A stretch of DNA of 64,000 nt from Spirochaetota bacterium (GTDB lineage Bacteria > Spirochaetota > UBA4802 > UBA5550): contig JBGTBN010000010.1 in assembly GCA_041749375.1 (NCBI GenBank), forward strand, positions 9,828 to 73,827, in the 5' to 3' direction. The first letter of the stretch is position 1; each line of letters begins with the position of its first letter. The notes under the pieces are model-generated. The model made no database searches. It had not been told where the DNA came from and saw nothing but the letters and a program-made list of their open reading frames with translations. Shown here piece by piece: positions 1,444 through 22,054 of the stretch. Both the position numbers and the translations under genes were made by a program.

Positions 1444-1455
1444 GATAGTTATCGG
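1444..1455 (+). repeat. Copy of GATAGTTATC(GG) motif, 33 bp upstream of the TPR gene start
   Basis: Exact 10-mer read directly at 1444-1453. See the motif finding. Confidence 0.9.
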
Positions 1456-1530
1456 TTTTAATGCGACATAACATTAGATTTTTTTATTTTTTGTCTTTCT
1501 ATTCGGATCCCGGGAAGAATATGCTCAAAG

Positions 1531-1662
1531 TGTCATCGCGAGGAACCCTCAATGTGTTGAGGGTGACGAAGCAATCTGCCCGGCGATAAGATAATGCATT
1601 ACTATAAAAGCTAAAATATTTATTGCCAATAAACAGATCGCTTCGCTGCGCTCGCGATGACA
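1531..1662. repeat. REP/MITE-like palindromic element
   Basis: Left arm: TGTCATCGCGAG (1531-1542) and CGAAGCAATCTG (1567-1578). Right arm, inverted: CAGATCGCTTCG (1634-1645) and CTCGCGATGACA (1651-1662). The arms flank an AT-rich core. An internal hairpin CCCTCAAtgtgTTGAGGG sits in the left arm. Confidence 0.6.
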
Positions 1663-1724
1663 GATGTTTCTAGTGAAATCTTCAGCTTTACATGTAATCG
1701 TTACGTATAAATGAGCTCTCCTTC

Positions 1725-1985
1725 CTATGCGGTTACTTCGATTCTGGCATTCGGATTGAAGGGGTTCGTGCGCACTGCTATCGAGTAGAGATAGGGGTAA
1801 CCGGTCTTCAAATGTTTCATGTATTCCAGCCATTCTCCCACGATGAGTTTGTAGGCCCGCAAGATATCGCCCCTGAGATGGTTGAGGTCGGAATCCGGAA
1901 GAGAGTCGAATGAGGCCCGGTGACCACCTCGCGTGTGAATGTGATACAGGTGTGCCGCGGCAAAGCGCGGGACGTTAAATTTTTT
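1725..1985 (-). pseudogene. Start-less ORF fragment (possible gene remnant)
   Basis: The stop-to-stop frame reads ...HLYHIHTRGGHRASFDSLPDSDLNHLRGDILRAYKLIVGEWLEYMKHLKTGYPYLYSIAVRTNPFNPNARIEVTA*. There is no ATG/GTG/TTG near its 5' end. It is wedged between the MFS gene stop and the palindromic element. I do not recognise the family. Confidence 0.25.
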
Positions 1986-3189
1986 TTATTTCGAGGTCGA
2001 GACCGCCGTAACGCGACCGAACGGCCCACAGGAGCGGCAGGGCCGCGACGAAGCCCGCGGCGCAGAAATTGAAGGCCGAGCGATAGGTGCCGGTGTGGTC
2101 GATAAGGAAGCCGAGGCCGAGTGCAAAGGCCATCATGCCGCCGTTAAAGGTGGCGGTGAACAGAGCGTTGGCCTTTCCCCTGTCGCAGGTATCCACGAGG
2201 CCGACCATGGTCGCGTTCAGGACCGGGTAGAGTATGCCGTGGGTAATGCCGTACATGATGCTGACCGCGATAAGCACGGCCATGGAATAGAGGAAGTTCA
2301 GGCACAGGTTCATCAGCGCGCCGACCGCGAACGCGATCATGATAATGACAACGCGGTTGAACCGGTTGACGATCCGCATGAAGGTAAACCGTATGATGAT
2401 GAGGACCGCGATATAGGTCATGAAGAATATCGAGAACTTGAAATCGGTCGTCGTGCGTATGAAGTTGGGCAGGTAGGTGATGATGACGCCGAACCCGCCC
2501 CCGAAAATCAGCCCGGCCAGCGACATGAGAAGAAACTTCCTGTCGGATAAAAGATGAAGTGAACCGCGGGTCGCCGGCTCGCACGCGTCAGGATCGCGAA
2601 GGTCGCCGCGGGGAAGGAGGAACGTGATGGCCATGCTCATCCCGACGAGGACGACTGACAGGATGAATATCAGCTGGTGCGAGTGGCCGCGCGCCAGGAG
2701 CATCTCGCCGACGAAGGGGCTCAGCGCGTTGCTCAGGGCGCCGGTAATGCCATAGAGCCCGATGGCCTCGGCCGCGTCCTCGAGCGGTACGATGTCGAAC
2801 ACGATGGTTGTTCCGAGTATCATCGCCACCGAGAAACCGATGCCGTGAAGGATGCGGATCGCCAGGATGAACCAGGAAAGGGAAGAGATCAGCAGGTATG
2901 AGGCGTACGCGACCAGCAGTATGAGATAGCCCAGACGCAGCATCCTGATCCGGTCCCTTCCGTGCATGATCGACCCAAGGGATACGGCAGAAATGATGAT
3001 GAACACCTTGTCGATATTGTTCATGACTCCGATATAGGACTCGGATGCGCCCATGTTTTTCAGGTACACCGGGAACAGTATGTAGAGCGAATTCCCGAGG
3101 AAGAAAAGGAAATTCGCCAGCGCCAGGTAGTAGAATATCGGCTTGTAGCGTTTCATGCTTCTACCATAAGGATTGATACCGAATGGCAA
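1975..3189 (-). CDS. MFS transporter
   Basis: 404 aa, about 12 hydrophobic helices, typical MFS loop composition. Confidence 0.8.
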   Translation of the reverse strand: MPFGINPYGRSMKRYKPIFYYLALANFLFFLGNSLYILFPVYLKNMGASESYIGVMNNIDKVFIIISAVSLGSIMHGRDRIRMLRLGYLILLVAYASYLLISSLSWFILAIRILHGIGFSVAMILGTTIVFDIVPLEDAAEAIGLYGITGALSNALSPFVGEMLLARGHSHQLIFILSVVLVGMSMAITFLLPRGDLRDPDACEPATRGSLHLLSDRKFLLMSLAGLIFGGGFGVIITYLPNFIRTTTDFKFSIFFMTYIAVLIIIRFTFMRIVNRFNRVVIIMIAFAVGALMNLCLNFLYSMAVLIAVSIMYGITHGILYPVLNATMVGLVDTCDRGKANALFTATFNGGMMAFALGLGFLIDHTGTYRSAFNFCAAGFVAALPLLWAVRSRYGGLDLEIKKI

Positions 3190-3316
3190 GTATTTTTTTT
3201 CAGTGTGTTCCGGACCTCACCCCGGCTCCCTTCGGCGGGCTCAGGACAAGCCGCCGCCGGGCGAGCGCTTTTAGAACATCCTGTCCGCGCTCGCCACTAC
3301 AACATCCTGTTGTGAG

Positions 3317-3392
3317 CCTTTCCCGAAGGGAGAGGGCTGAGAGAAAGAAGGCTCGTAACCAGGCGCCCTTTTCTCCCTTGGGGAGAAGGGGG
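3317..3392. repeat. Two GC-rich REP-like hairpins in an intergenic region
   Basis: CCTTTCCCgaaGGGAGAGG (3317-3335) and TTCTCCCttgGGGAGAA (3371-3387). This is the kind of sequence that yields spurious PLGRRG-type ORFs. Confidence 0.5.
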
Positions 3393-3510
3393 ATGGGAGG
3401 ATGAGGTCATGGCGGTTATGGATAAAAAATTGATTGCATTAATTCCCGCGGGGTATGAATATTAAGCATGCCCGCACAACCCGGGCCCATTCTCCCACCG
3501 GAGGCCGTTC

Positions 3511-4065
3511 ATGGAACTGCAAGAGGCGATACTGAAGCGCCGGAGCCAGAGAAAATTCACCGATTACCATGTTACTGACGAAGAAATACGCGAGCTCCTT
3601 GAAGCGGCGCGCTGGGCCCCGTCGTGGGCCAACTTCCAGGTCTGGGAATTCATCGTGGTCCGGGACCGGGACGTCATTGCACAGGTGGCCGCCACCTATG
3701 ATGAGAACAACCCGGCAGTCAGGTGCACCCAGGCGGCTTCCGCCCTGATCGTGGGATGCGCGAAGACCGGGGTGTCCGGCCTCAAGGGCGGCAAACAGAC
3801 CGTATTCTCGGAGTGGTTCATGTTCGACCTGGGACTCGCGGTCCAGAACCTCTGCCTCAGGGCGCACGAGCTCGGGCTGGGTACCGTCATCGTTGGATCG
3901 CTCGACCATAATGCGCTCAGGAAGGTGCTATCGGTTCCCGAAGGCTACCATGCCGCGGTGGTTATGCCCCTGGGCAAGCCGGTCGTACCGGACAAGCAGC
4001 CGACTCCGCGGAAAGAGATAAAAGACTTCTCGCACCTGGACGCGTTCGGCAGGCCGTATGCCTGA
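3511..4065 (+). CDS. Nitroreductase family protein
   Basis: 184 aa. The N-terminus AILKRRSQRKFTDYHVTDEEIRELLEAARWAPSWANFQ is the classical nitroreductase signature. Confidence 0.85.
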   Translation: MELQEAILKRRSQRKFTDYHVTDEEIRELLEAARWAPSWANFQVWEFIVVRDRDVIAQVAATYDENNPAVRCTQAASALIVGCAKTGVSGLKGGKQTVFSEWFMFDLGLAVQNLCLRAHELGLGTVIVGSLDHNALRKVLSVPEGYHAAVVMPLGKPVVPDKQPTPRKEIKDFSHLDAFGRPYA

Positions 4066-4080
4066 GAATCTATTACGGAG

Positions 4081-4899
4081 ATGCAGATGACGAGCGGCAT
4101 AGAGCTTGAATACCGGGGCCACTGCGCGGTCATTACGCTCAACAGGCCGGAGAAAAGAAATGCCTTCAACCGTGAAATGTGGGCAGCGCTCGATTCTGTC
4201 TCGAGAAGGCTCCATGACCGGCTTCCCCGCGTGGTGGTCATGACCGGCGCCGGGGAGAGCGCGTTCTGCGCCGGGTTTGATGTTAATCCAGACAATCCGC
4301 AGGTGTCCGAGCTTATGGGCGCAGTGCAGAAACGGGACCGCGCGCCGGCAGAGGAGCTTGTCCGTTACATACGCGGCGTCGTCGATCACCTGGTGAGCCT
4401 GCCGGTCCCGCTGATCGCCGCGATCAACGGCCTGGCATACGGCGGCGGCGCGGAGCTGGCGAGCCGGTGCGACATGCGCGTAATGGACCCGGCCGCGGTG
4501 GTATGCTTTTCGGAGGTCCGACTGGGCCTGATGCCGGACTGGGGCGGCGGGGTGGCCCTCTCGCGCCTGATCGGGAGATCGCGCGCGGCAGACATCATAC
4601 TCACGGCCCGTCGCGTTGGGGCCGAGGAGGCCCTTCGTATCGGCCTGGCGGACCGGGTGAGCGCACCGGGACGGGCGCTCGAGGAGTCGCTTGCCCTTGC
4701 GGAGTCCATCGCGAAGAACGGCCCCCGCGCCGTGCGATCCGCGCTCGAGGTGATCCGAAGGGCTGCGGACATCCACCTCAGGGACGCGCTGGAGTTCGAG
4801 ACCATGATCGCGGCGGACCTCATAGCCTCCGGGGAGTGCGTACACGGGATCACGGCGTTTCTCAGGAAAAAGGAGCCGGAGTTTCCCGATCCGGAGTAA
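4081..4899 (+). CDS. Enoyl-CoA hydratase/isomerase (crotonase) family protein
   Basis: 272 aa. Contains ITLNRPEKRNAF and the oxyanion-hole region AAINGLAYGGGAELA. Confidence 0.85.
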   Translation: MQMTSGIELEYRGHCAVITLNRPEKRNAFNREMWAALDSVSRRLHDRLPRVVVMTGAGESAFCAGFDVNPDNPQVSELMGAVQKRDRAPAEELVRYIRGVVDHLVSLPVPLIAAINGLAYGGGAELASRCDMRVMDPAAVVCFSEVRLGLMPDWGGGVALSRLIGRSRAADIILTARRVGAEEALRIGLADRVSAPGRALEESLALAESIAKNGPRAVRSALEVIRRAADIHLRDALEFETMIAADLIASGECVHGITAFLRKKEPEFPDPE

Positions 4900-4965
4900 A
4901 CCCTCCAGTCCGACCGCATGCAGCTACTACCGGATTGAAGTCATAGTTCAAGGATTATCTGACCC

Positions 4966-6645: not shown

Positions 6646-6693
6646 TTATTAATGAAAAAATAATAATGAATAATTCCGGATCAAATCCAGTTT

Positions 6694-6718
6694 GAATCCA
6701 TGCGAAAAATATGGATTC
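6694..6718. repeat. Intergenic hairpin (REP-like, possible terminator of ygiQ)
   Basis: GAATCCATgcgaaaaatATGGATTC, an 8-bp perfect stem, embedded in ATTCCGG...CCGGAAT outer repeats (about 6672-6749). Confidence 0.45.
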
Positions 6719-6927
6719 CGGCTCTTCGATGGTCTTCGGCCGGAATGATAGTTGAGTTTTGCAACAAGTCTACTATATAGAAGAATAGCATTGTAAGATA
6801 TCATTGGAATACTAAAAATTCTTTTACCATATCTATTCAACTTGTTGTAATATTGATTCGTGTGTATTCGTGTTCATTGGTAGTTAATTTTACAACCCAC
6901 AATATTCCCTGATGCGGTGGTGGCTTT

Positions 6928-7854: not shown

Positions 7855-7855
7855 G

Positions 7856-8446
7856 TTATCTCTCCTTGTAAATGGTTATGAATGATTCGATGAAATCGTT
7901 GATGGTCTGCTCGAGTAAAAGATCGGCATCGATCGCCAAGTACCCGATGATACCGTCGAGTGCGGCCATGAGGGCGATGGAAGCGCTGTGCGGGTTAAAT
8001 GATTTGAATCTCCTTTCAGTGATGCCTTTCAGGTATATCGAATCGAAAAAGGCGGTCATCTGGGATGTGTAGCCTTTATAGAGATACTGAAAATTTTCAT
8101 TCAGTATGGTTTTTGTCATTGTGAGAAACACGAACGAAAGTTCGTGCGGATGCCCGGTCCAGTAGGTCAGGTAATTCCGAATGTAGCCGGCAAGACCGTC
8201 GGCTGCGTCAGGGTCGGCCATCGCTTCCCCCATGAAAGTGAATATCGGCTCCATAAAAGCTTCATTGGCCTTTACCAGGATATCGTCTTTGCTGTTAAAG
8301 TGATAATACAGGCCTCCCTTCGTGAGGCCGGCCCTGGCGGCTATTGATTCCATGCTTGCATTTTCGTAACCCTTTTCTACGAATTCCTGGATTGAAGCGT
8401 CAAGAATGTCACTTATCCGCTTGGTTTTTGGCTCTTTTTTGGTCAT
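7856..8446 (-). CDS. TetR/AcrR family transcriptional regulator
   Basis: The HTH region is ILDASIQEFVEKGYENASMESIAARAGLTKGGLYYHFNSKDDIL. The start was moved to the internal ATG (MTKKEPK) because the longer ORF would run through its own promoter and operator. The stop lies 1 nt from the start of the downstream nitroreductase fusion. Confidence 0.85.
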   Translation of the reverse strand: MTKKEPKTKRISDILDASIQEFVEKGYENASMESIAARAGLTKGGLYYHFNSKDDILVKANEAFMEPIFTFMGEAMADPDAADGLAGYIRNYLTYWTGHPHELSFVFLTMTKTILNENFQYLYKGYTSQMTAFFDSIYLKGITERRFKSFNPHSASIALMAALDGIIGYLAIDADLLLEQTINDFIESFITIYKER

Positions 8447-8466
8447 TACATAATCCTTGTAATAAG

Positions 8467-8493
8467 GATACCTACGGTCGGTATCTTTGTCAA
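8467..8493 (-). promoter_or_regulatory. Palindromic operator GATACC-N7-GGTATC overlapping a TTGACA -35 box
   Basis: The reverse strand reads TTGACAaaGATACCgaccgtaGGTATCcttattac. The perfect 6-bp arms span 8467-8485 and the -35 box spans 8488-8493. It lies about 20 bp upstream of the TetR start. Confidence 0.6.
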
Positions 8494-8527
8494 GAAAAAA
8501 ATTTGCTGTCAAAGTAATGTATCGCCG

Positions 8528-8713
8528 GATAGTTATCGCCTTGTATGGGAATCAGATTAAAAAAAGAGGCTATAGCCATCGTCAAATTCGGGGCCGAATA
8601 AGATTGGATTGATAGTTATCGCCACGTTTGGGGTCAGAGCCCCGAATACGCCATCCTGGCTAAGTTGGGACTTCGGCATCCATGCCTTAGCTTTTTATAC
8701 AGATAGTTATCGC
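8528..8713 (+). repeat. Array of three direct GATAGTTATCGC(C/T) copies (iteron-like)
   Basis: Copies start at 8528, 8611 and 8702 (spacing 83 and 91 bp). Copies 1 and 2 share an extended match: GATAGTTATCGCCnnGTnTGGG..TCAGA. Confidence 0.85.
8659..8697 (+). terminator. Terminator-like hairpin plus T-run in the ABC-F leader (candidate attenuator)
   Basis: GCTAAG (8659-8664) pairs with CTTAGC (8686-8691). An inner GGCAT/ATGCC pairing is possible. The stem is followed by TTTTTAT. It lies about 110 bp upstream of the ABC-F ATG. Confidence 0.35.
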
Positions 8714-10677: not shown

Positions 10678-10729
10678 AGGCCCGGACCTGTACCTTTTGC
10701 GACTTCAGATTATAATCATTGGAGGAGCC

Positions 10730-13336: not shown

Positions 13337-15426
13337 GTAATCCGGACCCTTGCATCAAGTGCGACTGCGCCGGAACCGAGTATCCGCACCGGGTTTGCGT
13401 CAAGCTCCTGGATTTCGGGGAACGTAGCCAGCAGATGTGAAATCCGTACTATCATGTCAACGTATGCTTCGATGTCACCCGCCGCTTTCCCCCTGGTGCC
13501 TTTCAGTATGCGGAACGATTTTAAATCCTTTACCTTCTCGAGGATCTCGTCACGGCTTGCGGGAGAGAGAAGTAATTTCACGTCCTTGAAAATTTCGATA
13601 TAAATTCCGCCATATCCGAAAAATACAACGGGTCCGAATGAAGCGTCCTGCCTGCCGCCGATGAACATATCGTAACCCTCTTCAGCCATTCTCATGACCC
13701 GGACGCCCTCGAATCGTGCTTGCTTGTTGTACGCGGCAAGGTTTTGTTGTATCGAATCGAACCCTTCCTTGACTTCTTTATCACTGCGCAGATTAAGGAT
13801 GACGCCGCCTGCTTCAGACTTGTGAAGCGCGTCCGGCGATACCACTTTCAGCACAACCGGGTAACCGATATTTTTTGCGAGAGAGGCTGCCGTGTCCCTT
13901 TCTCCGGCTATGGCCGACGGCGCGACCGGAACTCCGAAAGAAGTTAGAAGATCAAGGCTCTCTTCGCCGGTGTCGCCGTGGTGAGCTGCGACCCATTTTC
14001 TTGCTTTGTCGAGGTCGATCCCGTCCGGCATCGAGTATTCACCGGGACCATGAAGTTTCCTGATGTGATAATCGCACTGCTTTTTCAGGGCGACCATCAT
14101 CTCCTCGAAGCTGTCGAAGATGGGGAAGTTGATGTTCTTTTTTATGGTTGATATCGTCGAAGACAGACCGAAGATGCAGCATGCCAGCGGTTTGCCGGAG
14201 GAAAGCATTGTGCCGGTGGCTTCCTTGGACAGATCGGTGTGAAACATCTTGTAGAAAACATCCTGACCACGCGGCATTTCCGGCCACTGGCTAACGAATA
14301 CGGCACCGTCCACATTGGTATTATGCATTACCTCGTAAAATATTTTCGTATGAAGGTTCGGGTCGTAGATATCACCCATGTCAAGCGGGTTCGAGAAGTT
14401 GATGACACCGGCGTTCGAGAAACCCTTCAGTCCTGCGTAAAACTCCTTTCCGGGATCGGCGAAACGGAAGCCGATTTTCTCGCACAGGTCGGCCATCATG
14501 ACCGTGATGCCGCCGGCCGGGCTCATCATCATTAGACGATTGTCCCGCATCGGAGGCAGGTCGAACGCCTTGGCGACGTTGATGAAGTCGTTGAAATGGG
14601 TGATCCTGATTATGCCGGCCTTCTCGAACGCTGAATCGATGATCTCATCATCATTCGATAACGCAGCCGTGTGGCTCATGGCCGCCCTGCGACCTGCCAT
14701 GGTGGTGTTGGACTTGAGGATAACAATCGGTTTGTTTATTCTGGCCGCGGCCGCGAGCAGGTCTTTCCCGCGGGGAAGGCTCTCCAGGTACATCCCGATG
14801 ATCTTCGTTTCAGGGTCCCGGCCATAATATTCGAGAAAATCCACCTCATCAAGGTCCAGCTTGTTCCCGATGCTGGCAAACTTTGCCATCCCGACGTTCT
14901 GGTCGGTCATGAAGTTCCAGAGCATGATGCCGACGCCGCCGCTCTGGGATACGATAGAAAGACCCCCTTTCGGTGGAGGAAACGAGGGAATGAAAGGAAG
15001 ACAGAGTCCGTTTGCGGTATTTGCCACGGTGAGGCCGTTAGGGCCGACAAACCGTATATTATGCTTGCGAGCCTTCTCGCGCAAAATAACTGAAAGATTC
15101 TTCCCCTCTGCTCCCAGCTCGTTGAAGCCGCCGGAGGGTATTGCCATCCATCGAGTGCCGACGCTTCCACATTCATCTACGAGGTCGGGAATGTATTTTG
15201 CTGGCACCAGGGCGAAGACCAGATCCGGAACGACCGGCAGGTTGCTTATACTTTTATACATCTGGATCCCGTTGACTTCATGGTCGTCGGATCGGGCGTT
15301 TACTCCCAGGATCCTTCCTTTGTATCCCCATCGAATCAGGTTTTCAAGTACCAGTTTGGGTATGTTGTTAGCTTTCGAGGAGAGCCCGATAATCGCAAGC
15401 GATTCGGGATAAAAGAGTTTTTCCAT
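13333..15426 (-). CDS. ADP-forming acetyl/acyl-CoA synthetase (CoA-binding plus ATP-grasp fusion)
   Basis: 697 aa. The N-terminus FYPESLAIIGLS...GVNA... is a CoA-binding/succinyl-CoA synthetase-like flavodoxin domain. The C-terminus is ATP-grasp (GYPVVLKVVSPDALHKSEAGGV). It overlaps pabB-like by 4 nt. Confidence 0.8.
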   Translation of the reverse strand: MEKLFYPESLAIIGLSSKANNIPKLVLENLIRWGYKGRILGVNARSDDHEVNGIQMYKSISNLPVVPDLVFALVPAKYIPDLVDECGSVGTRWMAIPSGGFNELGAEGKNLSVILREKARKHNIRFVGPNGLTVANTANGLCLPFIPSFPPPKGGLSIVSQSGGVGIMLWNFMTDQNVGMAKFASIGNKLDLDEVDFLEYYGRDPETKIIGMYLESLPRGKDLLAAAARINKPIVILKSNTTMAGRRAAMSHTAALSNDDEIIDSAFEKAGIIRITHFNDFINVAKAFDLPPMRDNRLMMMSPAGGITVMMADLCEKIGFRFADPGKEFYAGLKGFSNAGVINFSNPLDMGDIYDPNLHTKIFYEVMHNTNVDGAVFVSQWPEMPRGQDVFYKMFHTDLSKEATGTMLSSGKPLACCIFGLSSTISTIKKNINFPIFDSFEEMMVALKKQCDYHIRKLHGPGEYSMPDGIDLDKARKWVAAHHGDTGEESLDLLTSFGVPVAPSAIAGERDTAASLAKNIGYPVVLKVVSPDALHKSEAGGVILNLRSDKEVKEGFDSIQQNLAAYNKQARFEGVRVMRMAEEGYDMFIGGRQDASFGPVVFFGYGGIYIEIFKDVKLLLSPASRDEILEKVKDLKSFRILKGTRGKAAGDIEAYVDMIVRISHLLATFPEIQELDANPVRILGSGAVALDARVRIT

Positions 15427-15623
15427 GGGTTCCTCCCTGTTGATCGCCGTGAGTATTAACGGCGATGGCGATCATGCAATATCAGCCTACCATGTTGCGA
15501 TAAGCTTCGTCAATTCGTTTTAGCAAAGTTTGGAGCAACTACCGGATCGTGTATCCGTAATAATATATTACCCGGCATTGCTGTGTACAACCAGAGGTCT
15601 GGAAGACCCGTGGCATGATAGTA

Positions 15624-15911
15624 TTAAATGCCCTGGAGGGATGAGAATTTCAGGATCCGTTTTATATTTTCTGAACAGTTTATTATTGAGAGGGTATGAT
15701 TTGAATCTTTCAGTTTGTTTGAAAGTGTTAATAGCGCACGAATGCCGGATGAATCAATATAATCCACCAGATCAAGATCAACTTCTACGTTTTTCCCCAA
15801 ACCGGGAATGTTCGCAATCTTATCGCTGAAAGGCTTGATCGTGGTTGATTCGAGATTGCCCTCTATAATTAATTTTATAATATCAGTTCCTTGATTGATT
15901 TTAACCTTCAT
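15624..15911 (-). CDS. STAS-domain anti-sigma-factor antagonist
   Basis: 95 aa. Contains DLDLVDYIDSSGIRALL, the SpoIIAA-type phosphorylatable Ser context. Confidence 0.8.
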   Translation of the reverse strand: MKVKINQGTDIIKLIIEGNLESTTIKPFSDKIANIPGLGKNVEVDLDLVDYIDSSGIRALLTLSNKLKDSNHTLSIINCSENIKRILKFSSLQGI

Positions 15912-16032
15912 TATAATATCCTCTGTCGACTTTTATATATTTACTATTTCTTGTTCATCACTACTATATATTACAATCGGGATTATTGTGCCTTATTTAT
16001 TAATATATGTCAATAAACTTTCTCAAAGAGAA

Positions 16033-16044
16033 GATAGTTATCGC
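16033..16044 (+). repeat. Copy of GATAGTTATCGC motif in the STAS promoter region
   Basis: Exact 12-mer. It is followed by the dyad CATGTTtatAACATG (16045-16059). Confidence 0.9.
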
Positions 16045-16188
16045 CATGTTTATAACATGTTATCTGATTCCCGGGAAATTCTGATTAGATTTTCCGTGTT
16101 GAAACTCTAAGGCTCGGCAGGAAACCTAAAAAAAAAGATTAATAATTGATTAAAGCTAGCATTGGACCGGATTGACTGGAGGTAATTA

Positions 16189-17250
16189 TCAATTAAGGGA
16201 AAAATGGCCCATACCAAGTAGTTGACCGCCCGCCGTCCAGACTTCCACAGTATATTTTCCCGGACCCTCGAGAATGGTGTGACGGGACCATGTTCCAAAA
16301 CCTTGCTTTCTGCCTCCTCTTATTTCGTTCAGACTTACTGTAAACAGGCGTCTTCCATTGTGATACCATACATGATCAATTTTTTCTTTAAGTCCCCTCG
16401 GCGCGAATATTGAGGAGTAAAAATAAACTTCCGATGCGGAATTAAAGTTCGATCGACTGAAAGCCTCAATTGGTTTGTACAGCTCGATCTTGCGGCAGGC
16501 TGTTGCGCGAGTTAGCTTTAGCGGGGAGGGGGGGATAAGACTCCTGCTAAACCATAAAAGAATGAAAAATAGACAAATTCCAATGATAAAGACAAGACTA
16601 TTTTTTCTGTTTTTTAGCAATTCAATATGCGGATACACGAAAATGAGTACAGCTGCTGCGGCAACTCCACCGGAGATGAGCAAGCTCCAGATGTTTCTCG
16701 TTCCAAAGAGAACAGGAAGAAGAAAGTTCAATACACAAAAGAATGTAAGGGCATAGAATAATGAACTTCGTAAAGGGTGTTTTGCAATGAATCGCTGGTA
16801 TACTGAGAACCAGCCTGCGATGATGGTTAGCCCGAGTATGAGTGGAGCGAATAACATGTTGCGTGATGGGAAAGTCATCGACTCGAAATAAAATGGCAAA
16901 ACGAAAAGAAGCATGTTGTTTATGATGAATATCAGAGCAGTATCCCATAATGAGGTTATAGCACCTTTCTTTTCTTTTAAAGGATAAAGCCGGAATGTAA
17001 TATAAAAAAATGCAAAGATGGTTGAAACAATAGCAATCGGCACGTATTCGAATCCCTTTTGAAAAAGAAATATTACCAGGAGGCTTGTAGCCAGGGAGAA
17101 TAGAGGCTGCAGTTTCATGAGACGTTGCAGGCCTTCAGGCCACAGGTTAATTAATGTATGAAGATACCTGAAAGTTCCGGTTATTCCCGGAGGGTGATCT
17201 TTCCGGGAAGGGAAGCCTTCCGTGTAATAGTGTAGTAACCTATCAATCAT
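16189..17250 (-). CDS. Polytopic membrane protein with DUF2914-like C-terminal domain
   Basis: 353 aa, about 8 TM helices, then a soluble tail ...IDHVWYHNGRRLFTVSLNEIRGGRKQGFGTWSRHTILEGPGKYTVEVWTAGGQLLG. This matches my recollection of DUF2914. Confidence 0.6.
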   Translation of the reverse strand: MIDRLLHYYTEGFPSRKDHPPGITGTFRYLHTLINLWPEGLQRLMKLQPLFSLATSLLVIFLFQKGFEYVPIAIVSTIFAFFYITFRLYPLKEKKGAITSLWDTALIFIINNMLLFVLPFYFESMTFPSRNMLFAPLILGLTIIAGWFSVYQRFIAKHPLRSSLFYALTFFCVLNFLLPVLFGTRNIWSLLISGGVAAAAVLIFVYPHIELLKNRKNSLVFIIGICLFFILLWFSRSLIPPSPLKLTRATACRKIELYKPIEAFSRSNFNSASEVYFYSSIFAPRGLKEKIDHVWYHNGRRLFTVSLNEIRGGRKQGFGTWSRHTILEGPGKYTVEVWTAGGQLLGMGHFSLN

Positions 17251-17297
17251 AATTAGATGAGATAAAGCTAATGTGAATCAAGGATGTCAAATATTAT

Positions 17298-17762
17298 TTA
17301 TGTAATGTAACGCATCAGAGTTTCAGTCGCTGGCAGTCCCCAAAAATTGATATTGTATATGATGCCATTTTTTATTCTTCGCGAGAAAATATAATTCATT
17401 AAGCGATAACTATCTATGTTCTCGATGATAGAGTTTTTCATTTTCATGATTATCAAATTTATAAATTGTTTAACAGCATCAGAGATGATCAATGATAATG
17501 TTTTTTTATATATTTTACGAAAATCATTACAATACTCATATTCATCTTCTCGTAAGTATAAATGAAATGTATGCCAGTTAGAAGGATTATCACGCTTCTG
17601 ATATTTGACCGCTGAAAACATGACTACCTGATGATTATGCTCCGAATATTTCTTCAAGAGAATTCTAATGATGTTCATCCTTGAGAGGTGCAGCATGTTT
17701 GATGCATGATCTAGCTTATACATTATTCCTTTTTGAATATTAATCGTCGTTTTAATTGCCAT
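17298..17762 (-). CDS. Hypothetical protein with possible N-terminal ribbon-helix-helix
   Basis: 154 aa, very AT-rich (13 G+C in the 60 nt at 17461-17520). The N-terminus KTTINIQKGIMYKLDHASNMLHLSRMNIIRILLKKY fits a beta-alpha-alpha RHH pattern. I recognise no family. Confidence 0.45.
   Translation of the reverse strand: MAIKTTINIQKGIMYKLDHASNMLHLSRMNIIRILLKKYSEHNHQVVMFSAVKYQKRDNPSNWHTFHLYLREDEYEYCNDFRKIYKKTLSLIISDAVKQFINLIIMKMKNSIIENIDSYRLMNYIFSRRIKNGIIYNINFWGLPATETLMRYIT
17403..17414 (-). repeat. Copy of GATAGTTATCGC motif, the only one on the minus strand
   Basis: The plus strand reads GCGATAACTATC. It lies inside the 154-aa ORF, encoding D-S-Y-R. Confidence 0.9.
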
Positions 17763-17873
17763 GGTTGCTCCTGTCTTTATAACATTTATTTATATAACGA
17801 ACGGCAGGTTAATAAAATAAAAAAAATTTAGATTAATGTCATTTATATTAAAAATGAGATAAATAATCTTTAA

Positions 17874-20378
17874 TTATTTTCGAGGCTTGGCATTGCTGGT
17901 TGGAACTGCAACCCGGGGATTGTCGGGCCAGTAATGTTTGGGATATCTCCCCATCTGCTCTTTCTTTACATCTTTATAAGATCGATCCCAGAAACCGTTC
18001 AAATCGCTAGTGATCTGTATTGGCCGTCCTGCCGGGTTCAGCAAGTGTATTATGCAGGGAATGCCGCAAAGTTGAGGAGTTTCAGTGGACCCAAGGAATT
18101 CTTGAATACGAGCAGCTATAATCGGAATTTCTCCGCTTTCATAATCGATCGATTTCTGTGTTCCTGATGGTAGAGTGTAATGCTCTGGTGCCAGCTTGTT
18201 TAGGATAGTTATCCGATCCCATCCTAAACGATTTTCAAGTGCTGAAATGATTGTTTTTTCTTGAAGGAGTGGTTCGCCATTAAAGTTGCCTGTTGGGATA
18301 AGCCATGTCTCGATTTCATCGATTAGAGTTTGAGATGTGAAGTCCGGCCAATTATTCTGTGTGCCGAAATTCTGAACAAATCGGCATCGTGCTAGGTACT
18401 TGCAAGAAGACTTATTCCATGGAAGGCAATCCAGGCCTTCTTTCATAATGCGATTATAAGCGATTGTTATCGCCTTCTCCTTGGTGAGCTGTATTCCATG
18501 AGTTTCTTTCAGGACCAGTCTACCCAGACGGAGAATAATCCGGGATTTCGGTGTCCAGCCGTCCCATTCGGTAATATATTCTTCCTCGGGCTCGCCTGCC
18601 AGACCATTGATGATGTCCTCCTTATTAATTGGCGCTGCAAGAAATATTCGAGCGTCTGTTTCTCCTCCATCCAATTCTGCTATGGCGATAAATTCTTCTT
18701 TGGCAAGAGGGCCGGTCAGACGCGCACCCCTTCCACTTGCCAGCACCCATCGAGATGCTTTATCATTCATACTGGTCTTTTGTGCTGTGCGGTCGGGATA
18801 GGCCAGCGCAAGCAATGTACCGGCCAGATCGGGTTCGATATCGTGTGCATTAAGATAGTTATCGCTTCCAGTTTTGATACGCAGTATTCGACGAGATTCA
18901 TCCACTATGCGGTGAACGAGACTTTCTTGAAGGGAGCAATTCCTGCCATCGAGCCAAAGAGCAAGAGCCGAAAGCCGGTCACGGAAATCAGGGTCATCAT
19001 TTCCAGGAAAGTCTCCTTCTTCGATGATCGCAGCGGTGACCGCTGCCGTGGTTAGCCAGCCTTTACCGGCAGCTACCTGGATCATATGCCCCAACCGGGG
19101 GTGAAGCCCAAGAACAGTGGCATTCCGGCCCGTATCCGTAATGCGCCCGCTGTCATCGATAAGCGATAACTGTCGCAATAGGCCCGATGCCCTGTCTGTG
19201 GCCGCCCGTGGTGGCGGGGTAAGCCATTTTAAGTCGTAGGGAGAGACCGCGCCCCAGAGAGCTGTTTCTAAAACAAGGGGAGCCAGGTCTGACTCGGCTA
19301 TTTCCGGTGGTGAAAAATTTTCACGGCGGACTGCCTGGTCCCACCATCGAAGACAGAGGCCCGGGCCGAGCCTTCCCGCCCTCCCTTTCCTCTGTTCGGC
19401 CGATGCAACAGATATTTCCACTGTGTTCCAGTGGTCCATGCCGGTCCGGGGGCGGTAGCGAACCCGTCGCTCCAGTCCGGTGTCTACCACAACGCGGACT
19501 CCCGGGACCGTCAAGCTTGTCTCAGCCACGTTTGTAGAGAGTATTATACGCCTGCCGCTTCCTGGTTTCGGGGCGAGGACCGACCGCTGTTCTTCCGGGG
19601 TGATACGGCCATGGAGAATGACGACCCTTGCGCGGGGTTTCGGAAGCCGTTCGAGAATTTCCCTCGTACGGTGTATCTCGCGGAACCCGGGGAGGAAGAC
19701 CAGGACGTCCCCCTCCGATGGAGAGAGGATAGTTATCGCCTCGTTGGCCAGGCGGGCGGCACCTTCCCATGGCTTTTCGTATGGGAGGGGAGGCCGGTAT
19801 TCGACCCGGACCGGGTGTGAGCGGCCGCCTACCGATATGAGAGGTATTTCTCCATACGCTGCGCGTACCTCGTCAGCAGGCGGGGTTGCTGACATGAGGA
19901 GTATTTTAAGCCCGGGCCTGAGCGTTTCACGGCAGTCCCAGCTCAACGCCAGGCCCAGGTCACTCTGCAAATTTCGTTCATGGAATTCATCGAAAATAAT
20001 CGTGCCATAGGTATCAAGCGACTGGTCATGCTGCATGATCCGGGTGAGGACTCCTTCCGTCATCACTTCGAGCCGGGTCGTTTTCCCAATTATGGTTTCC
20101 TGCCGGGTGCGGAGCCCGACCGTCTGCCCGATCGTTTCGTCCAGGAGATCGGCAATTCGCTCGGCCGCGGCCCGTGCCGCGATACGGCGCGGCTGGAGAA
20201 GGATCAGCTTCAATCCGGCGAACGTTTCATGCGAGAGAAGACGCCACGGCACAAGCGTGGTTTTTCCCGCACCGGTCTCCGCGTGGAGCATGAGCGTACC
20301 TGATCCGGCGAGAGAGACCGCTATGTCATCGAGCCGTGCGTATACCGGAAGGGACGCAATTTCGTCGATTGAGCGCAT
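17874..20378 (-). CDS. hrpB: ATP-dependent RNA helicase HrpB (DEAH box)
   Basis: 834 aa. Contains AETGAGKTT, DEFHER, SAT, TNVAETSLT and QRKGRAGR, plus the long HrpB-type C-terminal extension. Confidence 0.9.
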   Translation of the reverse strand: MRSIDEIASLPVYARLDDIAVSLAGSGTLMLHAETGAGKTTLVPWRLLSHETFAGLKLILLQPRRIAARAAAERIADLLDETIGQTVGLRTRQETIIGKTTRLEVMTEGVLTRIMQHDQSLDTYGTIIFDEFHERNLQSDLGLALSWDCRETLRPGLKILLMSATPPADEVRAAYGEIPLISVGGRSHPVRVEYRPPLPYEKPWEGAARLANEAITILSPSEGDVLVFLPGFREIHRTREILERLPKPRARVVILHGRITPEEQRSVLAPKPGSGRRIILSTNVAETSLTVPGVRVVVDTGLERRVRYRPRTGMDHWNTVEISVASAEQRKGRAGRLGPGLCLRWWDQAVRRENFSPPEIAESDLAPLVLETALWGAVSPYDLKWLTPPPRAATDRASGLLRQLSLIDDSGRITDTGRNATVLGLHPRLGHMIQVAAGKGWLTTAAVTAAIIEEGDFPGNDDPDFRDRLSALALWLDGRNCSLQESLVHRIVDESRRILRIKTGSDNYLNAHDIEPDLAGTLLALAYPDRTAQKTSMNDKASRWVLASGRGARLTGPLAKEEFIAIAELDGGETDARIFLAAPINKEDIINGLAGEPEEEYITEWDGWTPKSRIILRLGRLVLKETHGIQLTKEKAITIAYNRIMKEGLDCLPWNKSSCKYLARCRFVQNFGTQNNWPDFTSQTLIDEIETWLIPTGNFNGEPLLQEKTIISALENRLGWDRITILNKLAPEHYTLPSGTQKSIDYESGEIPIIAARIQEFLGSTETPQLCGIPCIIHLLNPAGRPIQITSDLNGFWDRSYKDVKKEQMGRYPKHYWPDNPRVAVPTSNAKPRK
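18204..18215 (+). repeat. Motif copy GATAGTTATCCG inside hrpB
   Basis: Exact 10-mer. It encodes R-I-T-I on the gene strand (CGG ATA ACT ATC). Confidence 0.9.
18854..18865 (+). repeat. Motif copy GATAGTTATCGC inside hrpB
   Basis: Exact 12-mer. It encodes S-D-N-Y-L, a different frame from the other hrpB copies. Confidence 0.9.
19728..19739 (+). repeat. Motif copy GATAGTTATCGC inside hrpB
   Basis: Exact 12-mer. It encodes A-I-T-I (GCG ATA ACT ATC) in a GC-rich part of the gene. Confidence 0.9.
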
Positions 20379-20434
20379 TGTCGGATCAGGGGTTGTGCCC
20401 GAGCTGACGCTCAGGATGACCCGCGAGCTCCTGG

Positions 20435-22054
20435 TTATTCAATTCGTTTTATCCGCCCTCCGGCTGCTGCTTCAACCGTGCGCTGCTTCCGTATCGTGTC
20501 AACAAGAAGCTCCCGCAGCGGGAGGCCGGTTTTTGTCGATGGCTTGCCTGTGAATAGAGCGTATCCGTCGCCGCCGGAATGCATGAAATCGGTTATGGTG
20601 ACCGAGTAGGTTTTTGCCGGATCGATCGCTGCGCCGCCGACCAGGACATCGGCCACCGTCTTGCCCTTGATCGTGAACGAGATGCCGGATACATGGAGGA
20701 ATCCGCCGTCCTCGTCCGCTCGATTGCCCCGGGCCGAGCGATTCAGCGCCGTGAGGATTTCACCGCCTGTCAGCTTTGCCACTACTATCTCGTTGGGATA
20801 AGGCATCACCTTGAATACGCTCTCGATAGTTATCGGCCCCCTGTCGAGGCTGGACCTGAGCGATCCGGCGTTGATAAACGCGATGTCCGAACTCGTATAA
20901 TTGCGCATGACGTCCGCAACGAAGTCACCCAGGTTCGTCTCCTCGTACCTGATGCGCCCCCGCTCGCCGTCCATGAACACCAGGGATTCGCCGATTACCT
21001 CCTTGAATGTCGCGTCGAGCTTCGAGCTGTACGCGTCAACGATTATCTTGACCTGCGGGTCCGGTTTGATATCGGAGGTTATAGGCAGGTAGCTCGTTGT
21101 TATGATTTCGCCCCGCTTGAGCACCGGGTCTATCGCGATGTCGATTCTTCCCAGATATCGTCCTTTCTCGAATGCCTGGAGTACCGGGACCCCGTTCGCA
21201 TTCTTGACCGGCTCGAAAAGTATCTGGTCGTGGCCGCCTATGATGGCGGTGAGTCCGCCAACCTTGTGTGCTATATCGGAGTCGGTCTGGAACTTACTGT
21301 GAGATAGTAGTATAACCGGTCCGTTCAAGAATGACTTCAGAAAGTGGTAGGACACGGTCTGTACCGAATCCATCACGTCGAGCTTCTCAACGTTTTCCGG
21401 TGCGGTCGTGGTCATAAGCTCCGTGGTGGTAGCGCCTATCACGGTGAGTCTCAGTTTGCCTGAAATAGGGAAGACGGCAAGGGGCTCGTTTACCAGTTTC
21501 CTGGTGTCTTTCCAGACGATGTTTGAGCTGATAAATGGAAACTTCGCCGCTTTCTTCATCGCAAGAAAATTATCGAGGCCGAAATCGAACTCATGGTTGC
21601 CGACCGTCATGGCATTGACACCCATGGCGTTGAATATCTCGATATCGGGTTTTCCCTTGAAAACTGTGGACATCGGCGTGCCCTGTAAAACGTCTCCTGC
21701 AACGAGCAGGAATGTCTTTATCCCCAGCTTCCTGTTTTCAGCGCGGACCTGTTTTACCAGGGTTGCAATCCCGGCTATGCCACCCACGTCAACCGTGGTG
21801 CCGTCTTCCTTTTTTGTTTTAAAGGGCTGGAGGTTTCCGTGAAGATCGTTAAAGAACAGGACCGTGAATTTCTCGACACGCGCCGGGGCATTTTTCGAGG
21901 ATGATACCTTGTTCGCGACGCGCGCGCCCCGGATTGAGCCCGTGTGAGCGGCCTGTAACCCGGGCTTTGCATGATGGTCGAGATCGAAAGGAGCGAGCCA
22001 TGTCGCCAGTAGCAACGCAAGTGTGAATCTGGAAAGACGCCTGTTTGATTTCAT
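20435..22054 (-). CDS. Periplasmic bifunctional metallophosphatase / 5'-nucleotidase (UshA-like)
   Basis: 539 aa with a signal peptide. Contains metallophosphoesterase motifs (FNDLHG, GDVLQG, GNHEFD) and a 5'-nucleotidase C-terminal domain. Confidence 0.85.
   Translation of the reverse strand: MKSNRRLSRFTLALLLATWLAPFDLDHHAKPGLQAAHTGSIRGARVANKVSSSKNAPARVEKFTVLFFNDLHGNLQPFKTKKEDGTTVDVGGIAGIATLVKQVRAENRKLGIKTFLLVAGDVLQGTPMSTVFKGKPDIEIFNAMGVNAMTVGNHEFDFGLDNFLAMKKAAKFPFISSNIVWKDTRKLVNEPLAVFPISGKLRLTVIGATTTELMTTTAPENVEKLDVMDSVQTVSYHFLKSFLNGPVILLSHSKFQTDSDIAHKVGGLTAIIGGHDQILFEPVKNANGVPVLQAFEKGRYLGRIDIAIDPVLKRGEIITTSYLPITSDIKPDPQVKIIVDAYSSKLDATFKEVIGESLVFMDGERGRIRYEETNLGDFVADVMRNYTSSDIAFINAGSLRSSLDRGPITIESVFKVMPYPNEIVVAKLTGGEILTALNRSARGNRADEDGGFLHVSGISFTIKGKTVADVLVGGAAIDPAKTYSVTITDFMHSGGDGYALFTGKPSTKTGLPLRELLVDTIRKQRTVEAAAGGRIKRIE
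20825..20836 (+). repeat. Motif copy GATAGTTATCGG inside the 5'-nucleotidase gene
   Basis: Exact 10-mer. It encodes P-I-T-I (CCG ATA ACT ATC). Confidence 0.9.

Follow-up and report, generated by a model that had tools for sequence, protein, structure and literature searches.

Why should a word of ten nucleotides crowd into the first 21 kb of a 64-kb stretch of a Spirochaetota chromosome and then disappear? In the stretch analyzed here (64 kb, hereafter the window), the word GATAGTTATC, which we call motif A, occurs ten times exactly, nine times on the plus strand and once on the minus strand (17405-17414), and all ten copies lie between 1444 and 20834 (Table 1). The expected number is 0.09, which is the mean of shuffled sequences, and no shuffle contained more than 1 copy. 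The density is 0.5 per kb in 21 kb and then 0, as no additional exact copy was found in the 43 kb from 21 to 64 kb. Under uniform placement, the probability that 10 of 10 copies fall in the first 21 of 64 kb is (21/64)^10 by our own arithmetic, or about 1.4e-5. No other 9- to 12-mer of the window is nearly as over-represented as this word, and 7 of the 10 copies extend to the 12-mer GATAGTTATCGC. Three one-mismatch relatives accompany the exact copies, of which the isolated one at 45036 may be a background copy or chance. A preliminary description of this DNA, made from its letters, had listed these copies, extensions and relatives and considered their number beyond chance, and our counts bear it out on each point.

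Table 1. Motif copies and associated genes in the 64-kb window.
Feature	Position	Strand	Context
Motif B-like GGGTCAGAGTA	1369..1379	+	Within 5' end of TPR gene, 65 nt from word copy at 1444
Word copy GATAGTTATCGG	1444..1455	+	Intergenic, 33 nt upstream of TPR gene ATG (gene on -)
TetR-family regulator gene	7856..8512	-	Adjoins triple site
Word copy GATAGTTATCGC	8528..8539	+	First of three in tetR / ABC-F divergent intergenic region
Motif B-like GGGAATCAGAT	8547-8557		After word copy at 8528
Word copy GATAGTTATCGC	8611..8622	+	Second in tetR / ABC-F intergenic region
Motif B GGGGTCAGAGCC	8630..8641	+	9 nt after word copy at 8611
Word copy GATAGTTATCGC	8702..8713	+	Third in tetR / ABC-F region, 96 nt upstream of ABC-F ATG
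Word copy GATAGTTATCGC	16033..16044	+	Upstream of STAS gene
154-aa orphan ORF	17298..17762	-	N-terminus like beta-strand plus two helices, low confidence
Reversed word copy GATAGTTATCGC	17403..17414	-	Inside 154-aa ORF, codons D-S-Y-R; kept in four species
hrpB (DEAH-box helicase)	17874..20378	-	Hosts five copies: three exact, two variants
Word copy GATAGTTATC(CG)	18204..18213	+	hrpB 3' part, R-I-T-I; window's lineage only
One-mismatch copy GATTGTTATCGC	18462..18473	+	hrpB, A-I-T-I; conserved in four species
Word copy GATAGTTATCGC	18854..18865	+	hrpB, second reading frame, S-D-N-Y-L; three species, fourth with one mismatch
Reversed one-mismatch copy GACAGTTATCGC	19163..19174	-	hrpB, R-Q-L-S-L; 13-nt run invariant in four species
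Word copy GATAGTTATCGC	19728..19739	+	hrpB, A-I-T-I; 16-nt run invariant in four species, longest of the gene
Word copy GATAGTTATCGG	20825..20836	+	5'-nucleotidase gene, P-I-T-I
One-mismatch relative GATAGTTAGCGG	45036..45047	+	Isolated

Comparison of the flanks of the word copies revealed no extended similarity, which indicates that the unit is the word itself and not a piece of a longer repeat or MITE. Unrelated hrpB loci of other phyla, 1.52 Mb in all, served as a control and contained 2 exact copies, approximately the chance level. The word has the anatomy of a quasi-palindrome, GATA-N2-TATC, of 12-16 bp; the dyad had been pointed out before, and its form would fit a dimeric DNA-binding protein. 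Extended at both ends, the word reads R-GATAGTTATC-GC-Y within the window's clade but C-C-GATAGTTATC-G-G-T among sister lineages. Neither an Rfam family at gathering score nor a tRNA gene was found at the sites or in the window. No described system uses the motif A word, and the preliminary description knew of none; full-text literature searches with the 10- and 12-mer returned primers only.

Within the cluster, 7 of the 12 copies and variants are located in ORFs. Five of these are exact copies, three in hrpB and one each in the 5'-nucleotidase gene and the 154-aa ORF, and they use at least two reading frames, as described earlier. One frame yields I-T-I at four sites with the variant at 18462 included, and another yields S-D-N-Y-L. 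The intragenic copies are free of indels and were made by substitutions. The densest part of the cluster is hrpB in every lineage examined. An alignment of hrpB and 5'-nucleotidase orthologs had been proposed as a check on selection. In a four-species codon alignment of hrpB (72-78% nucleotide identity, with 57% of the columns and 25% of the third positions invariant), 7 of 2542 12-nt windows were invariant and all 7 fell in two word sites. The two longest invariant runs of this 2.5-kb gene are two of its five word sites. The word positions fall in protein-variable segments, and AITI, DNYL or RQLSL is found there only in the clade with at least 73% HrpB identity. Since the word is invariant at synonymous sites though the segments are protein-variable, it is, on the evidence of these alignments, under purifying selection as DNA, which upholds the earlier claim that selection acts on the DNA word and not on the protein. 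At the hrpB site equivalent to 18462, the relative L253 carries a perfect GGCGATAACTATCGCC; at the site in the 154-aa ORF, L007 uses the same codons for a word in the opposite orientation, GATAACTATC (D-N-Y). In the 5'-nucleotidase gene, the window's copy is made purely by synonymous codon choice in a conserved GPITIE peptide; L004 and L253 have no word at this position. The word sites are selected strongly enough to dictate codons in conserved genes, and comparably clear examples of coding sequence shaped by selection on DNA are few, namely those of parS, of uptake sequences and of Chi.

Placement at permissive coding positions and enrichment in a helicase gene are also what a DNA uptake sequence (DUS/USS-like) of a naturally competent lineage would show. 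Such a signal was among the earlier suggestions, and it gains from the dialects of the 10-12-mer, ..GC in the window's clade and ..GG in sister lineages, and from the presence of ComFC-like and ComEC genes. However, the density is very patchy: 43 kb of the window have no copy, and a distant locus has 2 in 22 kb. Known uptake-sequence systems reach about 1 copy per kb of core genome with no local clusters, 10-100 times above the density of motif A. The strong local co-orientation, the tandem arrays with a second motif and the promoter footprints described below do not fit either. At the observed density we regard an uptake role as extremely improbable.

The word-rich region is not peculiar to the window. 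Relatives with HrpB identities as low as 63% have the same syntenic block, which runs from the 5'-nucleotidase gene to MFS/TPR over about 18-20 kb, and it is rich in the word there too. L004, L253 and L252 retain the same sites as the window. L005 and L007, both at 63% HrpB identity, carry sites at other hrpB codons, inside ygiQ and upstream of DUF5924, ABC-F and MFS. On both sides the block is bordered by DNA free of the word, of which the window covers 43 kb, L254 about 10 kb, and L004 and L005 8-10 kb; the L007 flank has one copy, at 3619. Individual sites come and go. A copy upstream of the 154-aa ORF is present in L004, L253 and L007, has one mismatch in L252 and is decayed in the window, which has gained a new site 330 bp from the lost one. 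As read from these comparisons, the block is conserved through genus-level divergence with turnover of individual sites. The word also occurs elsewhere: on the chromosome of one relative (the 4.8-Mb contig CAVSFD010000002.1), two exact copies lie 2.37 Mb from the block where 0.04 are expected. This single distant 22-kb sample with its 2 copies would put the genome-wide density at about 0.1 per kb. The confinement to 21 kb that had been claimed holds inside the window. It fails in relatives, given their copies at a distance of 2.4 Mb and their tandem arrays at other loci.

A bounded cluster of selected sites recalls a chromosomal centromere, and a non-canonical centromere or condensation-loading cluster had been put forward. 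On this reading, widened to organizing sites of the parS, matS or SlmA kind, a factor for segregation or condensation would be loaded or anchored at the roughly ten sites of the 20 kb. In its favor, the cluster packs about 10-13 short quasi-palindromes into about 20 kb, and many of these are intragenic. They stay at orthologous codons, with some turnover, and the cluster is bounded on both sides and persists over genus-level divergence. Chromosomal parS clusters have this architecture. Against it, the canonical 16-bp parS palindrome TGTTNCACGTGAAACA is absent from the window at up to 3 mismatches, and no ParA, ParB, SMC, MatP or FtsK gene was seen in the window or in the relatives' flanks; Pfam scans of 46 window ORFs, including the larger ones, detected no ParA or ParB domain. 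The cumulative GC skew is monotonic over the 64-kb window and a 39-kb stretch of a relative, with no switch within about -9 to +43 kb, which means that the cluster is not at ori or ter. Moreover, the word recurs 2.4 Mb away and in arrays at other loci, and its promoter-adjacent geometry points to transcription. We consider the centromere highly doubtful. A Ter-like fork trap, also suggested earlier, is not supported either. Ter sites are few and asymmetric in a genome, in two opposed groups that flank the terminus; here at least 10 sites occupy 20 kb without a skew switch, copies are found on distant parts of the chromosome 2.4 Mb away, and arrays exist elsewhere, all of which speaks against a Ter of the Tus/RTP type.

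The strand bias could also mean that the word is a polar, replication-oriented signal of the Chi/KOPS kind, read by a RecBCD/AddAB- or FtsK-like machine and set on the leading strand genome-wide, with the hrpB block as a peak in density. The orientation does follow the chromosome strand and not gene direction, the ygiQ copy being sense and the hrpB copies antisense. The nine plus-strand copies of the window are on the G-rich strand, and so is the word at two loci 2.4 Mb apart in the 4.8-Mb genome, where the GC skew of the record strand has opposite signs, although only two independent loci are covered. Over more contigs the majority orientation agrees with the G-rich strand in 25 of 41 (13 of 21 at a GC of at least 0.5), which is not significant. 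In the direction in which the words point, a density of 0.5 per kb gives way to 43 kb with no copy. Reversed copies are conserved, and one site has flipped its orientation in place between lineages. Tandem arrays and promoter footprints would be unexpected. Chi and KOPS words are 5-8 nt long, not palindromic and spread rather evenly at one per few kb; a 10-12-nt quasi-palindrome with 0 copies in 43 kb does not have their form. Such a signal is distinctly improbable.

The intergenic copies bring promoters into the picture. Five copies are promoter-proximal as described before: three belong to the tetR / ABC-F region, and the TPR and STAS genes have one each upstream. The copy at 16033 is a phylogenetic footprint, located in a three-species alignment 19 nt upstream of a conserved promoter-like TTGACA-17-CACAAT (16013-15985, minus strand). 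A sigma-70-like TTGACA-17-TATCCT on the minus strand (8493-8465) lies 34 nt from the copy at 8528. Motif A lies 10 nt upstream of a -35-like TTGACA of DUF5924 in L005/L007 (a reading by eye, which gave no -10 at the correct spacing) and 10 nt upstream of the -35 TTGACT of a tetR gene in L258, where the order is B-B-A. The position relative to the promoter varies. It is about -50 or about -60 in some cases and about -75 for tetR, and for TPR it falls in the spacer or the 5'UTR.

The letter B refers to a second motif, GGGGTCAGAGCA, with the consensus GG(G/T)GTCAGAG(C/T)A, which went unseen in the preliminary description. The window's word at 8611 and the motif B at 8630 form an A-B composite as in metagenome contigs, which contain phased tandem arrays of motif A alternating with motif B every ~21 bp. 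Array spacings are 21, 42-43, 52-53 and ~84-105 bp, in data from a metagenome search that selected for pairs and in which some matches are chance tandem repeats. The two motifs interchange at the same loci across lineages. The tetR / ABC-F region reads A-B'-A-B-A in the window, A-A-A in L004, A-B-B in L254 and B-B-B in L259, and it has three A and two B in L160. Upstream of TPR, motif A in the window is motif B in a third lineage, L259; and column 523 of the hrpB alignment holds A or B by lineage, L005 and L007 having motif B, GGGTCAGAGCA, in the column of the window's copy at 18854. The two motifs share no sequence similarity, so that at least two DNA-reading surfaces are needed.

Arrays of two alternating unit types suggest a REP/BIME-like family as well, in which A and B would be unit types of a dispersed palindromic repeat peculiar to the lineage, spread and kept by a Y1-transposase-like enzyme or by recombination and acting mainly through structure (mRNA 3' hairpins, gyrase/IHF-type binding), with the window copies as old members. 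The copy number in the intergenic arrays varies between close relatives, and the spacings in the tetR / ABC-F region are 83 and 91 bp in the window, 156 and 45 bp in L004, and 99 and 40 bp in L160. Inverted doublets occur in L141, L146, L170, L194 and L195, and motif B often forms a hairpin with a nearby complement (window GGGGTCAGAGCCCC, L206, L154). The A/B swap at the same loci is in line with this reading. On the other hand, REP elements are extragenic, and half of the window copies are in ORFs, substitution-made and invariant at synonymous sites; single copies in the window, with a stem of 4-5 bp, are too short to fold. Several arrays lie in divergent promoter regions and not at 3' ends. 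When the ORFs within 1.5 kb of the arrays were all compared with one another, no shared neighbor emerged, and no transposase gene was seen next to the arrays. We regard a REP/BIME-like origin as unlikely.

Then, what would read these motifs? The nearest candidates are local. If the adjacent TetR or the protein from the 154-aa ORF used the word as its operator, with spill-over sites in neighboring genes, one would expect the three copies in the tetR / ABC-F divergent region, which are conserved in L004 and L160, and the copy upstream of the 154-aa ORF in the relatives named above. The patterns of gene presence and absence largely refute this. L005 and the L007 genome (locus L254) lack tetR and retain A/B upstream of ABC-F. 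L259 has tetR, yet its motifs are B only, and another TetR gene, in L258, carries a separate perfect palindrome of 30 bp across the -10, B-B-A being located further upstream. L005 also lacks the 154-aa ORF and keeps four A sites in the hot spot, so the ORF product, an earlier candidate binder whose structure model was uninformative, loses its case. Copies 2.4 Mb away add to the difficulty. The TetR of the window is a generic family member (best PDB match, MbdR) and is probably not the cognate binder, and a local regulon is very improbable altogether.

Neither the adjacent tetR nor the 154-aa ORF is needed for the sites to persist, and copies exist 2.37 Mb away, so the factor would not be encoded next door. 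We tentatively favor, at somewhat less than an even chance, that motif A represents the recognition sites of a lineage-wide, sequence-specific DNA-binding factor with an unusually dense, conserved domain around hrpB. The predicted factor would probably be dimeric, would have its gene elsewhere in the genome, would serve this Spirochaetota lineage as a whole and would act together with motif B. In intergenic DNA, A and B would form phased arrays of ~21 bp per element, upstream of or inside sigma-70-like promoters, with a regulatory or architectural role; inside genes, single copies would sit in permissive codons and be maintained by purifying selection. The domain from the 5'-nucleotidase gene to TPR/MFS (~20 kb), with a site density about 10 times that elsewhere, would be heavily occupied, most densely from hrpB to DUF5924. 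We infer that a protein binds the motifs and that its binding may regulate or organize the domain to some benefit. Among the options first listed, a regulon operator with many intragenic sites comes closest, with the amendment that the factor appears global rather than local.

Several observations count against such a factor. A transcription factor seldom has intragenic sites as dense and conserved as the five in hrpB. A symmetric dimer leaves the orientation bias unexplained. This bias is 9:1 in the window and about 22:4 when independently gained sites in relatives are included, the latter a rough count rather than a statistical comparison. The promoter-relative positions are not uniform, and the dissimilarity of A and B calls for at least two DNA-reading surfaces. 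Alternatively, A and B could be two elements of an undescribed chromosome-level system, either a polar strand-reading signal or a non-ParB loading or anchoring zone with its densest, evolutionarily fixed station at hrpB-DUF5924; or the core CCGATAGTTATCGG could be the substrate of a hairpin-recognizing recombinase that, in low-GC bacteria, also writes the core into the loops of partial tRNA genes repeated in tandem. We hold this to be quite unlikely. If a protein does read the motifs, as the favored DNA-binding factor would, the motif pair and its factor would be undescribed and belong to a phylum-level group known only from metagenomes. Oligonucleotides of A and B, together with the 4.8-Mb genome of the relative, provide a concrete handle on the system.

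Several known systems share part of this picture. parS clusters are also made of short quasi-palindromes, about 4-24 copies in 10-60 kb, many intragenic, selected and subject to turnover. However, the word is unrelated to the near-universal parS sequence, neither parAB nor an ori-type skew switch is nearby, and motif A has an asymmetric center, a biased orientation, copies far away and arrays with a second motif. The landmark sites of nucleoid-associated proteins (SlmA-binding sites, matS and Noc-binding sites) are 12-16-bp palindromes dispersed over a part of the chromosome, often within genes, and are read by a dimeric helix-turn-helix protein, of the TetR family for SlmA. Those sites extend over hundreds of kb without phased arrays or a second motif, in contrast to 10 motif A copies in 20 kb, and the window's TetR is dispensable for the sites. 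The REP/BIME elements of enterobacteria, which bind the host proteins IHF and gyrase, share lineage-specific palindromic units, alternating two-type arrays and variable copy number; they are 20-40 bp long, strictly extragenic and alternate in orientation, whereas A and B units are 10-16 bp, co-oriented and partly intragenic. The 9-12-mer uptake sequences of Neisseriaceae and Pasteurellaceae likewise come in genus-level dialects and are accommodated by variable segments of proteins in particular frames, but motif A is orders of magnitude sparser, clustered, strand-biased, arrayed and promoter-adjacent. Phased activator arrays (Fis at rRNA promoters) and iterons likewise repeat every two helical turns upstream of the -35, whereas motif A consists of exact 10-12-mers conserved across genera, with copies deep inside genes and arrays away from promoters. 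This arrangement is set apart by its dense and conserved block of 20 kb and by the way in which two unrelated motifs stand in for each other at the same loci, and no textbook system fits it exactly.

The word GATAGTTATC (motif A, pattern GATAGTTATCG) occurs ten times in the window, with nine copies on the plus strand and one on the minus strand, all within 1444-20834. Dinucleotide-preserving shuffles of the window contained on average 0.09 copies and at most one, and in the whole window the word tops the over-representation among 9- to 12-mers. Seven of the ten copies extend to GATAGTTATCGC. The ten-copy excess and the one-mismatch relatives reported in the preliminary description (see the table) were thus borne out, and so was the gene context given there. 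The intergenic copies lie upstream of the TPR gene (one), between the tetR and ABC-F genes (three) and upstream of the STAS gene (one); those within ORFs are found in the DEAH-box helicase gene hrpB, the 5'-nucleotidase gene and a 154-aa orphan ORF (17298-17762, minus strand). By its HrpB homologues, the window is placed among uncultured Spirochaetota. The right-hand 43 kb is empty of copies, and the remainder of the window consists of ordinary chromosomal genes (chemoreceptors, molybdopterin oxidoreductase, polyprenyl synthases, purH). Over 60 nt, the sequences flanking the copies show no relation to one another, so the word is not part of a longer repeat, and a MITE was ruled out on the same ground. 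An RNA gene or riboswitch was also rejected, since the window holds neither an Rfam family match nor a tRNA gene. An AT-rich stretch at 15000-19000 (37-42% GC versus about 55% for the window) spans the 154-aa ORF, the DUF5924 gene and the 3' end of hrpB, and it is here that the sites of the cluster are densest. The variant copy at 18460-18473 (+) makes up a small palindrome, GCGATTGTTATCGC, with a T-rich tail after it, and a terminator scan flags it on the strand antisense to hrpB.

Positions of word variants and motif B copies, arrangement of motifs A and B at shared loci (B', B-like copy), and loci of the tRNA-linked palindrome
Feature	Locus and position	Strand	Remark
One-mismatch relative of the word	window 18462	+	window sequence search
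One-mismatch relative of the word	window 19163-19174	-	window sequence search
One-mismatch relative, GATAGTTAGCGG	window 45036		window sequence
Motif B, GGGGTCAGAGCC	window 8630-8641		9 nt after the 8611 word copy
B-like copy, GGGAATCAGAT	window		follows the word copy at 8528
B-like copy	window 1369-1379		
Motif B copies (n=6)	L254 6389, 6476, 8210, 9860, 9956, 11224		
Motif B copies	L259 4716, 4774, 4827, 15890		
Arrangement, tetR/ABC-F spacer			window A-B'-A-B-A; L004 A-A-A; L254 A-B-B; L259 B-B-B; L005/L007 n/a
Arrangement, TPR upstream region			window A; L259 B; L004, L254, L005/L007 n/a
Arrangement, hrpB alignment column 523			window A; L005/L007 B; L004, L254, L259 n/a
tRNA-linked loci of TCCCGATAGTTATCGGGA	L134, L135/L202, L138, L140, L147, L161, L163/L172, L174, L176, L178		metagenome contigs, GC 32-48%
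tRNA-linked loci of TCCCGATAGTTATCGGGA, further	L182, L183, L187/L188, L189, L190, L192, L193, L209, L210, L211		metagenome contigs, GC 32-48%

The proposal that selection acts on the DNA word rather than on the protein was upheld in hrpB, where the word copies sit in segments in which the protein varies among homologues, yet include the longest invariant nucleotide runs. At those segments AITI, (S/G)DN(Y/N)L or RQLSL is encoded only by the clade of the window (at least 73% HrpB identity). We aligned the hrpB codons of four species, namely the window and the related loci L004, L253 and L252 (72-78% nucleotide identity), and found 57% of the columns and 25% of the third positions invariant. No invariant runs of this 2.5-kb gene are longer than GAGGCGATAACTATCC (16 nt) and GACAGTTATCGCT (13 nt), each of them a word site, and all seven invariant 12-nt windows lie inside these two sites. 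At the position of the 18462 variant of hrpB, L253 has a perfect GGCGATAACTATCGCC. In the 5'-nucleotidase gene, the copy is confined to the window and arose through synonymous choice in a conserved GPITIE peptide. Across the set, word copies use two reading frames and both orientations. No indels accompany them, and the copies originated through substitution rather than insertion. Judging from these alignments, the word is selected as DNA.

The same sites are kept in the closer relatives L002/L003, L004 and L253 (each at 81% HrpB identity) and L252 (75%), and L004 also carries three copies between tetR and ABC-F at a spacing different from that of the window. In the distant relatives L005 and L007 (63% HrpB identity), synteny is conserved, and the word is found at different codons of hrpB as well as in front of DUF5924. 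The neighbouring stretch L254, from the same genome as L007, has copies within ygiQ and upstream of both ABC-F and MFS. The motif-rich block of that genome spans about 18 kb between hrpB and MFS. Past MFS, the next 10 kb contain neither A nor B, and a single copy lies in the 10 kb past the 5'-nucleotidase gene. Individual sites turn over. Upstream of the 154-aa ORF there is a site that L004, L253 and L007 have in exact form and L252 with one mismatch; it is decayed in the window, which instead has a lineage-specific copy in the hrpB 3' end, 330 bp from the decayed site. Within the 154-aa ORF, L007 has its copy at the same codons but with reversed orientation (DNY versus DSY). The word was not found in L006 (57% HrpB identity, no synteny), and locus L257 of a 1.74-Mb relative contig had no copy, so not every related genome uses the word. 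The cluster around hrpB is a conserved, unusually dense domain of sites with turnover.

The confinement to the first 21 kb that had been claimed is true of the window only, as relatives carry the word in arrays and at a distance of 2.37 Mb. The latter case is the 22-kb locus L256, on the same 4.8-Mb contig as L254 (CAVSFD010000002.1), which has two exact GATAGTTATCGG copies, both intragenic, where 0.04 were expected. On this basis the background density of the word is low, about 0.03-0.1 per kb, yet far above chance, and the hrpB block exceeds it about tenfold.

The arrays came from a metagenome search for two word copies 68-98 nt apart, which matched at least 120 stretches; 80 loci among the matches were listed. 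Tandem repeats containing the 11-mer meet this pattern automatically, and L142/L203, L156/L173, L184/L205 and L137/L196 are chance tandem repeats of this kind. Two clearly real families stand out among the listed matches, an array family and a tRNA-linked family. In the former, on contigs with a GC content of at least 0.5, co-oriented arrays of about 21 bp per element (units of 42-43 bp) are made of GC-GATAGTTATC-GC or CC-GATAGTTATC-GG in alternation with GG(G/T)GTCAGAG(C/T)A, a second motif (motif B, pattern GGGGTCAGAG). One of these contigs, L160, is a relative's orthologous tetR/ABC-F spacer with three A and two B. Motif B is also present in the hrpB of L005 and L007, and at shared loci A in one lineage takes the place of B in a sister lineage, namely in the tetR/ABC-F spacer, upstream of TPR and at hrpB column 523. 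The genes adjoining the metagenome arrays are housekeeping genes with no neighbour common to them, and the plasmid collection gave no match to the arrays. A REP/BIME-like repeat family is a less likely rival reading of such sites.

The tRNA-linked family is found on low-GC contigs, where an 18-bp palindrome, TCCCGATAGTTATCGGGA, takes the place of a loop (the D-loop in most cases, otherwise the anticodon loop or T-loop) in two to six tandem partial tRNA gene copies. These are copies of the tRNA gene directly beside the array, the last copy being the intact gene, and involve many tRNA species (Phe, Ser, Leu, Arg, Pro, Val, Ala, Met and others). We found no description of this palindrome in the literature. 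The quasi-palindromic 11-mer holds only about 7 nt of information, and the family may share its core with the Spirochaetota word only by chance. In L163 (1724-1800, 2045-2169), a different, hairpin-forming 59-nt insert occupies the T-loop of a second copy of a tRNA gene, and the first copy has beside it a 3' partial tRNA copy that carries this insert too; in this organism, tRNA loops seem to serve generally as targets of insertion. The viral collection gave 48 matches (L084-L131), all of them enterobacterial lambdoid origin iterons, DnaA-box clusters (GTTATCCACA) or other repeats unrelated to the word of the window. In enterobacterial lambdoid prophage origins the 10-mer arises at the junction of adjacent iterons GGGATAGTTATCCC with 105-bp spacing, and in low-GC viral contigs it is fused to DnaA boxes (GATAGTTATCCACA).

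Several copies occupy regulator-like positions, with a geometry that is not uniform. In a three-species alignment of the STAS upstream region, the word is a conserved block 19 nt upstream of an equally conserved TTGACA-17-CACAAT. At DUF5924 in L005 and L007 the 10-mer, read by eye, ends 10 nt before a TTGACA for which no -10 at the correct spacing turned up. At a second tetR gene, in the related locus L258, a gap of 10 nt separates the end of a B-B-A array from TTGACT-17-TATTAT, the TPR copy lies 33 nt from the ATG, and the word upstream of the window tetR is about 34 nt beyond a TTGACA. A resemblance to the sigma-28 -10 element (GCCGATAA versus GCGATAAC) was rejected, as TAAA is missing at the right distance. 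The -10 of the L258 tetR gene is covered by a perfect 30-bp palindrome, TAATTAACGGTGTTAT-TATAACACTGTTAATTA (16505-16550, minus strand), presumably that gene's own operator and separate from the word. The window TetR is a generic family member, and genomes that do not have that tetR gene still carry the A/B array upstream of ABC-F. The 154-aa protein, proposed earlier as a candidate binder, fared no better: it has no family or structure match in Pfam or PDB, its single-sequence AlphaFold model is unusable (pLDDT 34), and its gene is missing in L005, where four copies remain in the hot spot. Since the sites persist without either gene, the predicted reader of the motif is most likely encoded elsewhere.

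Word copies within the block are strongly co-oriented (9:1 in the window), and their orientation tracks the chromosome strand rather than gene direction, the ygiQ copy being sense and the hrpB copies antisense. GC skew is positive throughout the window. The two independent loci sampled in the 4.8-Mb genome have skew of opposite sign, and at both the G-rich strand carries the word, which hints at a replication-related polarity. Among metagenome contigs, orientation agrees with local GC skew in 25 of 41, which is not significant. Reversed copies are conserved, and one site flipped its orientation in place. A polar signal read by strand is the other less likely rival reading.

The literature has the 10- and 12-mers only in primers and the like, in agreement with the earlier statement that no described system was known to use the word; the finding is real and apparently undescribed. 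In the window we found no parS and no ori, ter or par genes, and the centromere role that had been suggested was not sustained in its canonical form. Matches to a dif-like pattern in the window were weak, with three mismatches, and all lay outside the cluster. The literature likewise yielded nothing about spirochaete uptake sequences. The DNA-uptake machinery is partly present in the lineage, as the window has a ComFC-like gene (double zinc ribbon and phosphoribosyltransferase domain; 55604-56593, minus strand) and the relative's locus L258 has a gene with a ComEC 'Competence' domain (1-1236). A canonical centromere, Ter, dif, a local TetR operator and a classical uptake sequence are each contradicted by at least one test, and the best-supported reading is a lineage-wide two-motif system of putative protein recognition sites, kept by purifying selection within genes and between them, with a dense domain around hrpB.
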